Notes under the pieces: model-generated
What the model was told of the DNA's origin: nothing
Databases searched by the model: none
What the model saw: the letters and a program-made list of their open reading frames with translations, nothing else
Program-made: the position numbers and the translations under genes
Part shown: positions 19,143 through 60,977 of the stretch, piece after piece
Position numbering within the stretch: position 1 is the stretch's first letter
Layout: every line of letters starts with the position of its first letter
Assembly (NCBI RefSeq): GCF_030013595.1
Contig: NZ_CP122768.1
Strand: one strand, 5' to 3'
Length of the DNA stretch: 64,000 nt
Source: Escherichia coli
GTDB lineage: Bacteria > Pseudomonadota > Gammaproteobacteria > Enterobacterales > Enterobacteriaceae

Positions 19143-19157
19143 TGGTGTCCCCTGCAG
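19143..19157. repeat. Prophage attL core: 15-bp direct repeat of the argW 3' end (tggtgtcccctgcag)
   Basis: Exact 15-bp copy of the tRNA 3' terminus found at 58665..58679; phage genes lie between the two copies. Confidence 0.7.
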
Positions 19158-19431: not shown

Positions 19432-19473
19432 GAGTGCTATCTCCGAATAGGGAATCGAACCTGCAAATCAGGC

Positions 19474-23328: not shown

Positions 23329-23461
23329 TTTTTGGGACTCCTGGCTGATTAAGTATGTCGATAAGGCGTTTCCATCCGTCACGTAATTTACGGGTGATTC
23401 GTTCAAGTAAAGATTCGGAAGGGCAGCCAGCAACAGGCCACCCTGCAATGGCATATTGCAT
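23297..23461 (-). CDS. cIII: cIII (FtsH inhibitor), 54 aa; below the ORF-track length cutoff
   Basis: Manual translation of the minus strand: [54 protein letters not shown]. Confidence 0.7.
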   Translation of the reverse strand: MQYAIAGWPVAGCPSESLLERITRKLRDGWKRLIDILNQPGVPKNGSNTYGYPD

Positions 23462-23533
23462 GGTGTGCTCCTTATTTATACATAACGAAAAACGCCTCGA
23501 GTGAAGCGTTATTGGTATGCGGTAAAGCCGCGC

Positions 23534-33950: not shown

Positions 33951-34025
33951 GGGTCAGTCGTATAAAGGTCATTACGGAAGGCTGTTAACCTTCTTATCGT
34001 GGTTCGAGTCCACGCTGTCCCGCCA
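33951..34025 (+). tRNA. Candidate phage-encoded tRNA (anticodon GTT, Asn-like); atypical D-arm and one acceptor-stem mismatch
   Basis: Manual fold: acceptor GGGTCAG/CTGTCCC, anticodon stem GAAGG/CCTTC with loop CTGTTAA, T-arm CGTGG-TTCGAGT-CCACG, 3' GCCA. Confidence 0.45.
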
Positions 34026-34030
34026 AATAT

Positions 34031-34106
34031 GCTGGTTTAGCTCCAATGGTAGAGCGGTCGCCTTGTAAGCGAATGGGTAGCGGTTCAAGTCCGTTAACCA
34101 GCACCA
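34031..34106 (+). tRNA. Candidate phage-encoded tRNA (anticodon TGT, Thr-like)
   Basis: Manual fold: acceptor GCTGGTT/AACCAGC, D-arm GCTC-CAATGGTA-GAGC, anticodon loop CTTGTAA, T-arm AGCGG-TTCAAGT-CCGTT, 3' ACCA. Confidence 0.5.
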
Positions 34107-36484: not shown

Positions 36485-36691
36485 CGGCAGTACCGCGAAA
36501 CAACCCAAGCCAGTAAGTGGGGAAATAACTGAAAGATGAACCTCCAGCCTTATGGCAAAAAAGATTCTTTGTGGTGGCGGACTGATGGAAAGACATCGGA
36601 TAGAATAAAACAGTGGCTAGGGTAGCTCCCGAAAAGCGGAATCGTCACCGCCAGCCACTGAATCTATGACGAACAACTAGACGAGGTTGAT

Positions 36692-54346: not shown

Positions 54347-55276
54347 ATGAAAAGTATAGCAACAGCAGTATCTACTATCAACGTGCCATTCCACGGCGCA
54401 GAGCTTTATGTCGTCAATCACAACGGTGAGCCGTACACCCCAATGAAACCTATCGTTGAAGGTATGGGTATGGATTGGGCTTCACAGTTTACGAAAATAA
54501 AGCAACGGTTTAAAACCTCCATTGTGAAAATCACAATGCAGCTTCCTGGTGATGAACAGTGCCGTGAGATTATTTGTTTGGCACTTCGCAAACTTGCTGG
54601 CTGGCTGCAAACCATCAGTCCAAACAAAGTCCGCCCTGAAATCCGCGACAAGGTAATCCAGTATCAGGAAGAGTGTGACGATGTGCTATACGAGTACTGG
54701 ACTAAAGGCCATGTAGTTAACCCACGCAAAGCTAAAAAGGCGTTGCCGGGTAAAATCACCACTGAACAGCAGGAAGCCATTAAACAACTCGTCATGAGTC
54801 GCGGTCAGTCTCTGCCAAAAGAAAAACAGGCTAAGGCGATGATCACCATGTGGTCGTCACTGAAATCCCATTTTGGATGTTCGTACAAAGAAATCAGTGA
54901 GGAGCAGTTTACCGAAGCACTGTCACTTGCTGCTCGAGTTCCACTTGAAGGTGAGTTCATTGGCAAACAAGAGAAGAAAACCAACGAGCTTTCTGCAAAA
55001 GAAGCAAACAGCCTTGTATGGCTCTGGGATTATGCTAACCGTTCACAGGCATTATTCCGCGAATTGTATCCGGCGCTAAAACAAATTCAATCGAACTATT
55101 CCGGCAGATGCTACGACTACGGTCATGAATTCTCGTATGTTATCGGAATGGCGAGAGACGTTTTAATCAATCACACACGAGATGTTGATATTAATGAGCC
55201 AGACGGACCAACGAATCTTTCCGCATGGATGAGACTTAAGAATAAAGAATTACCTCCTTCAGTACATAACTACTGA
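54347..55276 (+). CDS. Antirepressor (Ant-like)
   Basis: 309-aa ORF following the arc-like gene, in the position of P22 ant. Confidence 0.6.
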
Positions 55277-55376
55277 CAGATAACCAACGCAACGACCCAG
55301 CTTCGGCTGGGTTTTTTTATGCCCAAAATTCACCGTGGCCACGCTGCGGCGATTCATTGTATCTGGAGCAAATTAA

Positions 55377-57272
55377 ATGACAGACATTACAGCCAATGTG
55401 ATCGTATCGATGCCTTCGCAACTCTTCACTATGGCGCGTTCTTTTAAAGCCGTAGCCAATGGCAAAATTTATATAGGGAAAATTGACACTGACCCGGTAA
55501 ATCCTGAAAACCAGATTCAGGTTTATGTGGAGAATGAAGATGGCTCTCACGTTCCTGTTTCGCAACCAATAATCATTAACGCTGCCGGATATCCGGTATA
55601 TAACGGACAGATTGCCAAGTTCGTAACTGTGCAAGGCCATTCTATGGCTGTTTATGATGCGTATGGGGCGCAGCAGTTCTATTTTCCTAATGTGCTGAAG
55701 TATGACCCTGACCAATTAAGACAGGAGCTATCTAAGCAGACTGATGGTTATTTTTTTAACCTTCCTCAAGGTGGTGTACTACATGATGCAATAAAGTATG
55801 TAACACCAGAAATGTATATCAATACATCTTCAGATATTACATCTGCTATACAAAGTGCATTTGACAATGGAAATGTGATTGATATGTCAGGTAGAGACTG
55901 GACTCTTGAGAGAACAATCCATGTCGGTGATGGCACTGAAATAAAGTTAGGCGCATCAACAATTACATGTCAACTTGGTTCTAAACCTGCTTTTGACTTT
56001 AGAGGAACAGATAAAGGACTCCTGGTCACAGGAGGTAAGTTTATTGGTAATTGCTCTGCAGTATTTTATTTCCAAGGGACTACTGCTTTCCCTTCTCAAT
56101 CAGGTCACTATGCAAGAAAAATAAGAATATACGGCACAGATGCTACTTCAGATACGGATGAGATAATTGATTTCATCTATATGAAGGACGCTGTAAGGCA
56201 AGTTTTTATTGATTCATGTTATGCATATGTAAAAAACGGCATTACTGCAAGCGGGAAATGTGTGGAGGTGAAAGTCCAAAAAAGCATATTCAACTCAGGA
56301 ACTTCCGATCAAAGTTCTTCTAGGATAAGTCTAAATTCACCGTCAGGAGCAAGTTATTACAACGAAGGTTGGCATTTTAGTGATTGTACAATTGATGGAG
56401 TTGGAAAATCATTTAATGTTACCGATATATATTCGTTAACCATCAATGGAGGATTTATCGGTGGTGAGGTTGCGTTTGGACAGCCAATAACAACACATTG
56501 CCGTGAGATCGTACTCGGTGGTGGATTAATCATGAAAGGGCGTGTTACTTTCACGCCAACCGTACAATATGACTACAGGGCCAACATATCTCCTTCTCTT
56601 ATGTTTGGTAATGGTGGAGTTGGAAACGTGGTCCTTAATGCAGGTGCTTCAGGCATCAACGTTAGCACAAAACTTGAAAGTTCTGGTGTTTCAGGAGGAA
56701 CTGGCGTTATTGTTAATGAAGGATGTTCTAATGTTAACGTTGACCTGAGCGCTGATAATACGTATGAAAGACTGGCGTCATTCAATGGTTACGGACCAAG
56801 GTGTTCCGCTTTGATACGTAACTACATGGGAAGCTCTCACCCAATTTATACAGAGCGACCATTAAAGATTATATCATCGCCTGTCACTGACGACGCTGGT
56901 TCTCTGCAGGTTATGAGTTTTGTAAATATACCAGCAGGAAGCTATATTGTTGGTTCTGTTATGTCTGAGGTGAAAGTGACTGCACCAAAAGGTTCTAGAG
57001 GGAAAATTTCTCTTACCATTTCACTGAGTGGATTAACAGGCACATCTTCACAGGCGCTTATTGTAAATATTCCTGCCGGAATGGTTACCCCATCCGGTTT
57101 AGGTTGGGCTTCAAATGTTATTAGACCTCAGTTTGCGGCTGGAATAATGAGTATTGAAATACCATTTTATACAACCACAGACATTGCAGAATCCTCATTA
57201 TCTGTATCTAATTTCTCAGGAAATACAGCAATTGTTGGACTAAACTCTTACATTGGATATTTTTTGATATGA
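55377..57272 (+). CDS. Tailspike protein: conserved P22/Sf6/HK620-type head-binding domain + divergent beta-helix receptor-binding domain
   Basis: N-terminal ~113 aa [60 protein letters not shown]...VLKYDPDQ; remainder Gly/Ser/Thr/Asn-rich and repetitive. Confidence 0.85.
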
Positions 57273-57348
57273 TAGGAAATATCGTGTGAGAAAAATTATC
57301 GCAAAGCATCTAAACATGTGAAGATGGTGAGATACTTTGCGATATCAA

Positions 57349-58539
57349 TTATTCATTTTCATCAAGCCAGTCCGCCCACCACTGCATCATTTCTCTGCGC
57401 TTGTCTAGATACTGAGCATGGTTGTAAATCCCACGCACAGATCCGCCGTTGGCATGTGCCAGTTGCACTTCAATAGCGTCAGCAGGCCATTCGTGCTCGT
57501 TCATAATTGTGCTGAATTCATGCCTGAATCCGTGACCGCTTTCCAGACCCTCATAGCCGATTTGTTTGATCACAAGCAATACCGCGTTCTCGCAGATTGG
57601 CTTCTTCTTATCGTTGCGCCCTGCAAAAACAAACTCTGATACTGGTTTGGTGATGGAGCTTAACGTAGTGAGAAGTTCAACCACCTGGTCTGACATCGGG
57701 ACCACATGAATTTTGCGTCCCTTCATCACGCTGGCGTCGATGGTGATAATCCTGTTTTCAAAATCGACGTTCTTCCATTGCATGGAGCGAAGCTCTTTCG
57801 TTCTTAGGGCTGTATAACGTAAAACTTTTGTCGCAATAAGCGATACGATACTTCCTGAAAATGTTGCCAGTGCTTTGTTGAATGCCGGGATCTGGTCTGC
57901 AGGAAGAAACGGGAAGTTCTTCTTGCGGTATCCTTTCATGGCGTCTGCAAGGTCAGGTGCCGGGTTATATTTAGCCCTTCCGGTGACAATAGCGTAACGG
58001 AAAACCTCTCCGCATCTTCTGCGGGCTTTGTTGGCTCGCTCCATTGCACCGCGATCTTCAAACCTGCGGATTACTTCAAGAAGTTGCATCGGCTCAATAT
58101 CCTGAATTTCAAGACCGCCGATGATGGGTAAAATGTCGTCATCAAACATTTTGGCAAGTTCAGTCGCATACCCTACAGACCAGACTTGCTTCTTGTGCTC
58201 GTACCATTCCTTGTAAATGGCGCTAAAGGAATTGTTGTTAGACGAAGCCTTTTTCGCTTTTACCGGATCGATGCCAACCGAGATGTCTTTCCTCGCAGTC
58301 CATGCTTTATCCCTTGCCTCTTGCAAAGTCATAAGCGGATATTTTCCGACGGTCAGGATTTTCTCCTTACCGTCAATCTTGTAGCGAAGCTGCCATACCT
58401 TTTTCCCGGATACAGGGACATAAAGGTACAATCCATTACCATCGAGAAGGCGGTATGGTTTTTCTTTCGGCTTTGCTGCTTCAATCTGCTTAACGGTGAG
58501 CATGGGTAAAAATCCGGTGGGTAAAATTATTTTATCCAC
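57349..58539 (-). CDS. intS: Tyrosine integrase, P4-type (IntS-like); start possibly at internal Met 58503
   Basis: ...MLTVKQIEAAKPKEKPYRLLDGNGLYLYV... with C-terminal catalytic region (HGFRH ... Y); directly adjacent to argW. Confidence 0.9.
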   Translation of the reverse strand: MDKIILPTGFLPMLTVKQIEAAKPKEKPYRLLDGNGLYLYVPVSGKKVWQLRYKIDGKEKILTVGKYPLMTLQEARDKAWTARKDISVGIDPVKAKKASSNNNSFSAIYKEWYEHKKQVWSVGYATELAKMFDDDILPIIGGLEIQDIEPMQLLEVIRRFEDRGAMERANKARRRCGEVFRYAIVTGRAKYNPAPDLADAMKGYRKKNFPFLPADQIPAFNKALATFSGSIVSLIATKVLRYTALRTKELRSMQWKNVDFENRIITIDASVMKGRKIHVVPMSDQVVELLTTLSSITKPVSEFVFAGRNDKKKPICENAVLLVIKQIGYEGLESGHGFRHEFSTIMNEHEWPADAIEVQLAHANGGSVRGIYNHAQYLDKRREMMQWWADWLDENE

Positions 58540-58664: not shown

Positions 58665-58679
58665 TGGTGTCCCCTGCAG
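58665..58679. repeat. Prophage attR core: 15-bp direct repeat (tggtgtcccctgcag) within the argW 3' end
   Basis: Exact copy of 19143..19157. Confidence 0.7.
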
Positions 58680-58739
58680 GAATCGAACCTGCAATTAGCC
58701 CTTAGGAGGGGCTCGTTATATCCATTTAACTAAGAGGAC
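58665..58739 (-). tRNA. argW: tRNA-Arg (anticodon CCU), argW; prophage attR at its 3' end
   Basis: Reverse complement reads GTCCTCTTAGTTAAATGGATATAACGAGCCCCTCCTAAGGGCTAATTGCAGGTTCGATTCCTGCAGGGGACACCA. Confidence 0.9.
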
Positions 58740-60040: not shown

Positions 60041-60796
60041 ATGAAGCTTCGCCTGTCGGCGCTTGCTCTGGGAACTACGCTTCTGGTGGGGTGTGCGAGT
60101 TCCGGTACAGATCAGCAAGGGCGTTCTGACCCGTTAGAAGGGTTCAACCGCACCATGTACAACTTTAACTTCAATGTATTAGACCCGTATATTGTTCGAC
60201 CGGTCGCTGTCGCCTGGCGTGATTATGTTCCGCAACCGGCGCGTAACGGTTTGAGCAATTTTACCGGCAACCTTGAAGAACCTGCGGTGATGGTTAACTA
60301 CTTCTTGCAGGGCGACCCTTATCAGGGGATGGTCCACTTTACCCGCTTTTTCCTGAACACCATTTTGGGGATGGGCGGCTTTATTGATGTTGCAGGGATG
60401 GCGAACCCGAAACTGCAACGGACTGAACCTCACCGCTTCGGTAGTACGCTTGGTCATTATGGCGTGGGTTATGGCCCGTACGTTCAATTACCGTTCTACG
60501 GTAGCTTCACGCTGCGTGATGACGGTGGTGATATGGTGGATGGTCTTTACCCGGTTCTTTCCTGGTTGACCTGGCCGATGTCTGTGGGTAAATGGACGCT
60601 TGAAGGTATCGAAACCCGCGCACAGCTGCTGGATTCCGACGGTCTGCTGCGTCAGTCGTCCGATCCTTACATTATGGTGCGCGAAGCGTACTTCCAGCGT
60701 CATGATTTCATCGCTAATGGCGGCGAACTCAAACCGCAGGAAAATCCGAACGCGCAAGCGATTCAGGATGATTTAAAAGATATCGATTCTGAATAA
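60041..60796 (+). CDS. mlaA: Outer-membrane lipoprotein MlaA (VacJ)
   Basis: 251 aa with lipoprotein signal MKLRLSALALGTTLLVGCASS. Confidence 0.9.
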   Translation: MKLRLSALALGTTLLVGCASSGTDQQGRSDPLEGFNRTMYNFNFNVLDPYIVRPVAVAWRDYVPQPARNGLSNFTGNLEEPAVMVNYFLQGDPYQGMVHFTRFFLNTILGMGGFIDVAGMANPKLQRTEPHRFGSTLGHYGVGYGPYVQLPFYGSFTLRDDGGDMVDGLYPVLSWLTWPMSVGKWTLEGIETRAQLLDSDGLLRQSSDPYIMVREAYFQRHDFIANGGELKPQENPNAQAIQDDLKDIDSE

Positions 60797-60804
60797 GAAA
60801 CAAA

Positions 60805-60840
60805 TAAAAAAGGTGAGTCGCAAAACTCACCTTTTTTGTT
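60805..60840 (+). terminator. Rho-independent terminator after mlaA (A-run/T-run flanked)
   Basis: aggtgagt-cgcaaa-actcacct hairpin followed by TTTTTT. Confidence 0.75.
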
Positions 60841-60977
60841 GTTATCCCTCAATTACCACAAGTAAAAGGAGATAAACCGACAATGACCCGGACGTAATGA
60901 TGTAAAAATACTGATGTTCGTCATTGACTATTTCCGATATTCAGTCGTTGAAAAATCAAAAAACTGGAAAAATAATT

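Follow-up and report, generated by a model that had tools for sequence, protein, structure and literature searches.

Which serogroup a podophage can infect depends mainly on the receptor-binding domains (RBDs) of its tailspikes, and these domains are also used as typing reagents, as glycan-cutting enzymes and as swap-in modules for engineered phages. The locus described here raises the question of what such a domain recognises, and how it came to be where it is, when it is joined to a familiar particle anchor and is itself unfamiliar. It lies in a 64,000-nucleotide stretch of Escherichia coli DNA (contig NZ_CP122768.1 of assembly GCF_030013595.1; called the window below), in which a tailspike gene occupies positions 55377..57272 on the + strand. 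We consider it probable that this gene specifies a tailspike, belonging to an apparently complete P22-like prophage at argW, and that the spike consists of an anchor and a swapped-in receptor domain that cuts glycan and whose likely substrate is the O147 O-antigen.

Domain organisation of the tailspike

According to the list of open reading frames (ORFs), the gene starts with ATG and encodes 631 amino acids (aa) followed by a stop codon. A GGAG ribosome-binding site, read from the sequence, is located 8 nucleotides (nt) upstream of the ATG (55365..55368, +). The same 631-residue protein also occurs in E. coli assemblies at NCBI, as P0109. A TTG-initiated antisense ORF of 132 residues (55317-55715, −) overlaps the head-binding coding region; it is without support and most likely spurious.

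The first 113 residues (55377..55715, +) correspond to a head-binding, or particle-anchor, domain. Pfam PF09008 (Head_binding) matches residues 1–113 over its whole profile (1–113/113) with an E value of 5.5e-67, and the identity over these residues is 92% with Sf6 gp14 (104/113) and 76% with P22 gp9 (86/113). A phmmer search against the PDB gave Sf6 gp14 (7sg7) and P22 gp9 (8tvr, 2xc1) as the top matches, with the N-terminal part alone being aligned; past about aa 170–190 the same search detected no similarity to P22, Sf6 or HK620. The C-terminal 518 residues are rich in Gly, Ser, Thr and Asn, which together make up 36.9% of this part versus 23% of the N-terminal domain. An earlier note, made from the letters of the window, had read the protein in just this way, as about 113 residues of P22/Sf6-like head-binding domain followed by a Gly/Ser/Thr/Asn-rich part unlike the receptor domains of P22, Sf6 and HK620, and our searches bear it out on each of these points. 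The comparisons support the view that this is a mosaic tailspike, in which a conserved P22/Sf6-type head-binding domain is joined, near the residues VLKYDPDQ, to an RBD with no detectable sequence similarity to those of P22, Sf6 and HK620.

Origin of the receptor domain

The position of the join was examined in complete genomes, in deposited phages and in other carriers of the gene. In 1,133 of the 5,426 complete E. coli genomes there is a match to nt 1 to ~354 of the tailspike gene and no further, while the full-length gene is matched in one genome, that of strain JX2, a result on which megablast and word-11 blastn agree. Deposited phages, among them phiv205-1, CUS-3, Sf6 and HK620, match the window until ~55708–55730 and again from ~57356, on the integrase side, and no deposited phage matches the nucleotides between ~55730 and ~57356.

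The gene was compared with that of four other carriers, namely JX2 (= L001), L002, L017 and L020, taking the window as the reference. The head-binding segment contains 23–36 substitutions per 339 nt in these carriers (89–93% identity), none of them beyond 55695. The receptor part (1,476 nt) contains 3–11 substitutions only, giving 99.25–99.8% identity, and the integrase side is 96.7–99.8% identical. In all four the last head-binding mismatch is at 55695 and the next mismatch downstream is at 55778, 55801 or 56441. In each of the four carriers, then, conservation is higher in the receptor part than in the head-binding segment, and in three of them it is also higher than on the integrase side (in L002 the two are equal). 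The carriers represent distinct backgrounds, in that their immI regions and chromosomal flanks differ, and the ORF is intact in all those examined, with just 1–4 amino-acid changes in the RBD.

Genome matches and phage matches thus both stop close to VLKYDPDQ, where the earlier note had located the junction, and polymorphism falls sharply after 55695. Together with the confidence of the structural model described below, these three independent limits place the recombination junction in the interval aa 107–134, which comprises VLKYDPDQ and the flexible neck (55696..55778, +). The receptor-binding-domain cassette downstream (55731..57272, +), delimited by the pattern of identity among carriers, by its composition and by its rarity, has a GC content of 39% compared with 48% in the remaining prophage. 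This pattern of conservation is the signature of a horizontally exchanged cassette that was transferred between distinct P22-like prophages in recent times.

A further comparison concerns P0002, an epsilon15-like tailspike from a Logan assembly (L003:8001-10199). In a sliding-window analysis its nucleotide identity to the window is 95–100% within 55797..56276 (+), a stretch of ~480 nt corresponding to aa ~141–300 and to the proximal β-helix, and 50–76% elsewhere. Outside this shared stretch the sequence of P0002 follows that of P0003. P0002 is itself a recombinant. The shared stretch makes a second, intragenic mosaic, which shows that P22-like and Uetakevirus-like spikes have recombined within the receptor domain.

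Homologues in other phages

The C-terminal module matched no Pfam family and no NCBIfam model, and the RBD alone matched no PHROG at E ≤ 0.1. The best PHROG for the full protein is 8280, which would make it a colanic-acid-degrading spike; this candidate was rejected because the RBD alone matches no PHROG, the match to PHROG 8280 coming from the anchor domain. PF12708 (Pectate_lyase_3) does not match the tailspike protein even at E ≤ 1, and the cap motif GDGxTDDTxAIQ is degenerate here (SSDITSAIQ). The relative P0015 carries PF12708, and a profile of the family matches the PDB only via the N-terminal cap motif GDGxTDDTxAIQ of GH55, PfbA and phi29 gp12, from which we take the relationship to PF12708 to be remote. 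The match of the family profile to the cap region of Sf6 is marginal (E 1e-3 to 3.5e-3).

A word-indexed protein search found 18 related clusters. When 1.84 billion representatives were scanned exhaustively with HMMER, 95 clusters came out at E ≤ 1e-3, 57 of them at E ≤ 1e-30, and nearly all of the 95 span residues 38–515 of the 518-residue module. Judged by these alignments the receptor domain is not an orphan: it has end-to-end relatives in about 95 clusters worldwide, across several phage types. These relatives are carried on different anchors. The P22-type anchor PF09008 is found in P0010; the TSP1/gp66 N-terminal domain PF18668 is found in P0004–7, P0018 and P0023; and P0002, P0003 and P0013 have an epsilon15/phiV10-like N-terminus. 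At the locus of P0002 a lysis cassette comes after the tailspike, with a pair of holins, an endolysin of the GH19 family and a gene resembling Rz. The end-to-end identity of the RBD is 71% for P0002, 61% for P0003 and 46–48% for P0004–P0007.

Among 50,697 deposited phage genomes the cassette is absent at >33% identity. There are four matching records, at 31–33% identity: two for Kagunavirus phage 26, one for Uetakevirus PAS61, and one for an Aeromonas jumbo-phage fibre, which matches in part. In tblastn the RBD is 33% identical to the phage 26 spike over 89% of its length (E 2e-56) and 32% identical to the PAS61 spike over 88% (E 7e-49), and its identity to these two spikes is 30–33% overall. 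We looked for an end-to-end alignment with a characterised tailspike of known specificity and found none, the best named relatives being those at 30–33%, whose specificity is itself predicted.

Structural predictions

The structure of residues 114–631 was predicted as a monomer with AlphaFold2, using an alignment of 72 sequences. The model has a mean predicted local distance difference test score (pLDDT) of 93.2 and a predicted template modelling score of 0.87. The neck (aa 114–131) is disordered, with pLDDT <50. It leads to a cap helix (aa 154–164) and a predicted right-handed parallel β-helix (~aa 167–500; 55875..56876, +), and then to a predicted C-terminal β-sandwich (~aa 513–631; 56913..57269, +), identified from its all-β secondary structure and high pLDDT. 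The sandwich is presumed, from the analogous domains of the spikes of P22 and Sf6, to be a trimer-stabilising or distal binding module. The description of this part in the earlier note as “repetitive β-helix-like” is thus right for the structure, where the model has stacked β rungs, and wrong for the DNA, in that no tandem repeats were found in the coding sequence of the receptor part.

In a Foldseek search against the PDB, the top match was the Sf6 tailspike (E 1.4e-9, TM score 0.40, 12% identity), followed by Klebsiella and Acinetobacter depolymerases, the tailspikes (TSPs) of CBA120, and HK620. Identity in the structural alignments to receptor domains of the Sf6, P22 and HK620 families is 10–12%. 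As modelled, the receptor domain has the canonical tailspike-depolymerase fold of the Sf6 and HK620 spikes.

Conserved residues

Residue conservation was scored over 72 family members. Three carboxylates are candidates for catalysis: E297 in the motif GK.VE (56265..56267; 89% conserved), E330 in the motif YNEGWH (56364..56366; 94%) and D340 (56394..56396; 94%). Two further acidic residues are conserved, D350 (56424..56426; 94%) and D460 (56754..56756; 90%), all five codons being on the + strand. Also conserved are D153 (88%), Y245 (92%), R274 in the motif AVRQVFID (82%), K294 in GK.VE (94%) and Y328 in YNEGWH (82%).

For the PAS61 spike, two acidic clusters have been proposed in silico as the active site (PMC11522302). 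The first of these is kept here, where E404, E437, D447 and D573 of PAS61 align with E297, E330, D340 and D460 respectively. We favour an acid/base glycoside-hydrolase centre that would be formed by E297, E330 and D340, with D350 and D460, because the carboxylates are conserved in the family and four of them coincide with the residues proposed for PAS61.

A possible O147 receptor

JX2 has an O-antigen cluster with rmlBDAC, a wzx and a wzy of the “O147 family”, a pair of glycosyltransferases, a gne-type gene and a gene of the UDP-glucuronic acid (UDP-GlcA) epimerase type. The O147 wzy was found in 6 of the 5,426 complete E. coli genomes, and from this proportion the chance that random placement would put the tailspike gene in an O147 genome is ~0.1%. 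Since JX2 is the only complete-genome carrier of the gene, and O147 is this rare, the one typed lysogen suggests that the spike is specific for the O147 / Shigella flexneri 6 O-antigen. On the same single data point, it is plausible that the O-antigen specificity differs from those of P22, Sf6 and HK620, as the earlier note had predicted. In JX2 the gene for the O-antigen chain-length regulator wzzB (L005:23647-24624) is annotated as a pseudogene with an internal stop, which could alter the modal length of the O-antigen there. Chromosomal neighbours were also used to look for the O type of the strain that carries the window, and they proved uninformative, the best matches being porcine enterotoxigenic E. 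coli (ETEC) at 99.0% identity that fall outside the O147 matches.

According to published surveys, Lederbergvirus and Uetakevirus prophages carry receptor-binding proteins (RBPs) that follow the O serogroup of their lysogen, and no O147 subtype is among those given (PMC10408124). In the library that was searched, we found no paper that pairs O147 with a tailspike. O147 has the backbone of S. flexneri serotype 6 without O-acetylation, and its repeat, composed of rhamnose (Rha), galacturonic acid (GalA) and N-acetylgalactosamine (GalNAc), is →2)-α-L-Rha-(1→2)-α-L-Rha-(1→4)-β-D-GalA-(1→3)-β-D-GalNAc-(1→ (PMC4206707).

This repeat contains a 4-substituted GalA, the chemical prerequisite for β-elimination, and the spike might accordingly be a polysaccharide lyase that acts by β-elimination at a 4-linked uronic acid and cleaves the Rha-(1→4)-GalA bond of an O147-type glycan. 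K294, R274 and Y245, conserved in the family, are candidates for the base or acid, with the acidic cluster as a possible Ca2+ site. We nevertheless regard a lyase as improbable: the hydrolases GH28, GH55, GH87 and GH110 and the hydrolytic spikes of Sf6, HK620 and CBA120 score equally in the fold comparison, the same centre occurs in relatives linked to O146 and probably to many other glycans, in which 4-linked uronates may be absent, and the assignment of the substrate is itself uncertain. A broader proposal, which we put forward tentatively and think somewhat doubtful, is that the cassette is the first identified depolymerase for the backbone of O147 and S. flexneri 6 (Rha-Rha-GalA-GalNAc) and belongs to a biochemically undescribed β-helix spike family whose conserved centre (K294, E297, Y328, E330, D340, D350) is perhaps a lyase at 4-linked GalA rather than a hydrolase.

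The receptor could instead be another surface glycan, such as a K capsule, an O-antigen capsule or colanic acid. Capsule-specific spikes can occur in this setting, as is shown by CUS-3, a P22-like phage at argW with a K1 endosialidase spike. Some RBP subtypes are spread over several O groups, and K-antigen targets have been suggested for them (Pas et al., PMC10408124). The best PHROG match of the full protein is annotated “colanic acid degradation”, but as noted above this match is driven by the anchor. Colanic acid is moreover near-universal in E. coli, while the cassette occurs in 1 of 5,426 genomes, a rarity that fits a rare serogroup better; and the relatives of the RBD belong to spikes of Uetakevirus and Kagunavirus, whose specificity is typically for the O-antigen. 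A non-O-antigen receptor therefore seems to us unlikely, with about as small a chance as the lyase.

Specificity for O146, as for the subtype of PAS61 and phage 26, is considerably less likely still. It would follow from the rule of Pas et al. 2023 that RBPs with ≥30% identity and ≥60% coverage form one subtype (PMC10408124), since the RBD is 30–33% identical to those spikes over 88–89% of its length. This identity, however, sits exactly on the threshold; of the acidic residues proposed for PAS61, half are substituted here (S407, N428); the protein groups with P0002–P0008, to which it is 46–71% identical, apart from the PAS61-like P0010 and P0013; and the sole typed host is O147, not O146.

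How the spike may work

We return to the interpretation favoured here, an anchored glycoside hydrolase that cuts the O147 O-antigen. On the basis of homology, residues 1–113 attach the spike to the virion's tail hub. The anchor is followed by a short flexible neck (~aa 114–140), and then, in the high-confidence model, by the β-helix (~aa 167–500) and β-sandwich (~aa 513–631). The spike is probably a homotrimer, by analogy with every studied spike of such architecture. By the same analogy it would bind the host surface polysaccharide along the β-helix and cut it endolytically, by which the phage would reach the outer membrane. The catalytic centre is most likely E297/E330/D340 with D350 and D460, acting as a glycoside hydrolase, and the substrate is most likely the O147 O-antigen, with the backbone of S. 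flexneri serotype 6, as suggested by the one typed lysogen. The receptor domain is a cassette exchanged horizontally, and it is common to epsilon15-like spikes and to spikes with a TSP1/gp66-type anchor.

Several observations weigh against this interpretation. The link to O147 comes from one genome only, in which wzzB is annotated as a pseudogene, and the nearest chromosomal relatives of the window, which are of the porcine ETEC4069 type and only 99.0% identical, are not among the O147 wzy matches. The spread of some RBP subtypes over several O groups, and the K-antigen targets proposed by Pas et al., also count against a simple assignment. With regard to the chemistry, two of the three residues of the second PAS61 cluster are lost (E491 is kept as E377, whereas E521 is replaced by S407 and D541 by N428), and the link between PAS61 and O146 itself consists of host range and in-silico work only. 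Hydrolases, lyases, epimerases and the non-enzymatic adhesin PfbA all give fold matches of equal strength, at ≤15% identity, so that the chemistry cannot be read from the fold.

The presence of PfbA among the top fold matches would also suit a spike that only binds, or one that has decayed, in a defective prophage, but we think this very unlikely given an intact ORF with a ribosome-binding site inside a complete virion module, a cassette carried almost unchanged, with few amino-acid replacements, by at least five different backgrounds, and a carboxylate cluster strongly conserved over the 72 relatives.

The prophage and its surroundings

Pfam identifies the P22 portal, P22 coat, gp10, Sf6-type needle knob, gp7, gp20, Ant and integrase in the prophage of the window, which also has a large terminase, and a 701-residue ORF with no Pfam match occupies the position of gp16. 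The prophage is thus apparently a complete P22-like (Lederbergvirus-type) prophage at argW. The tailspike gene closes the virion module and comes after the immI region, a layout also found in the prophages of JX2, L002 and L020. Immediately upstream is the antirepressor Ant of the immI region (54347..55276, +; Pfam P22_AR_N and P22_AR_C), followed by a terminator-like hairpin (55294-55313). Downstream, and convergent with the tailspike gene, is an IntS-type integrase (57349..58539, −), identified by Pfam (Phage_integrase, Arm-DNA-bind_3) and by the JX2 annotation. The gap between the two genes is 76 bp and contains no O-antigen-modification gene. A strong sigma-70-like match (10/12, extended −10 TG) is present in this gap at 57295-57322 (−), oriented antisense to the tailspike gene and facing into its 3′ end; it is a consensus match only.

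The integration site is the tRNA-Arg(CCU) gene argW, on the attR side (58665..58739, −; ARAGORN and Rfam). Phage similarity stops at ~58679, and past argW are yfdC and mlaA. A 30-nt segment of the 3′ end of argW (58665-58694, beside int) recurs at the left end of the prophage as two abutting halves, at 19143-19157 (15 nt) and 19451-19466 (16 nt), which are ~293 bp apart. This split copy may be a split attL, arising from an insertion or from two successive integrations. Further out, between mlaA and fadL, there is an AT-rich block (60750-62500, 31–35% GC) with an ORF of 424 residues (60978..62252, −). JX2 has the 352-residue yfdF at this position, indicating a variable chromosomal islet by the integration site.

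Inside the prophage, Rfam identifies a lambda cIII thermoregulator element (23416-23474, −) and an int-alpA-type small RNA (36610-36672, +), and there are phage-borne tRNAs for Asn (GTT) and Thr (TGT), on which ARAGORN and Rfam agree (33951-34106, +).

Relation to other tailspikes

The modular exchange of anchor and RBD is already known and is textbook P22-family biology. The novelty lies in this particular specificity cassette, hitherto uncharacterised, in its recent spread through prophages at argW and, tentatively, in its link to O147 and S. flexneri 6. To our knowledge no member of the RBD family has been studied biochemically. S. flexneri 6 is a vaccine-relevant serotype with an O-antigen unlike that of all other S. 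flexneri, and if the O147 link is true, the domain would provide a reagent for ETEC O147 of pigs, and S. flexneri 6 might be covered as well.

The closest classical counterpart is Sf6 gp14 (PDB 2vbe/2vbk, 7sg7), whose structure in the virion has been determined in situ (7sg7/7ukj). The Sf6 tailspike is an endorhamnosidase, with S. flexneri Y-type O-antigen as its substrate. The head-binding domains are 92% identical, both genes are the last late gene beside int in an argW-integrating P22-like genome, and both proteins have an anchor, a neck, a right-handed β-helix and a C-terminal β domain, here predicted, with Sf6 as the best Foldseek match. In contrast, the RBDs have no pairwise sequence match, with 12% identity in the structural alignment and a TM score of 0.40, and oac lies between the spike gene and int in Sf6, where the window has only the 76-bp gap. 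P22 gp9 and the spikes of HK620 and CUS-3 are an endorhamnosidase, an endo-N-acetylglucosaminidase and an endosialidase respectively, and represent the classical shuffling of anchor and RBD in P22-like phages; their RBDs are unrelated in sequence to that of the window tailspike.

The spikes of PAS61 (Uetakevirus; predicted to be O146-specific) and Kagunavirus phage 26 have a homologous RBD with the same predicted fold, and in PAS61 the acidic residues E404/E437/D447/D573 correspond to E297/E330/D340/D460. They differ in their anchors, which are epsilon15-type and TSP1/gp66-type respectively, and in an identity of only 30–33%, which sits on the subtype threshold of Pas et al.; the second acidic cluster of PAS61 is not conserved, and the only typed carrier here is O147, not O146. 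The closest relatives of the RBD are the epsilon15-like P0002 and P0003 and the PF18668-anchored P0004–P0007, from metagenome and Logan assemblies, which have other anchors and belong to other phage types. On these comparisons of sequence and model, the protein belongs to the P22-like tailspike class, which its anchor, genomic position and predicted fold all fit; its RBD is assigned by sequence outside the receptor-domain families of Sf6, P22 and HK620, and within the broad family represented by PAS61 and phage 26.

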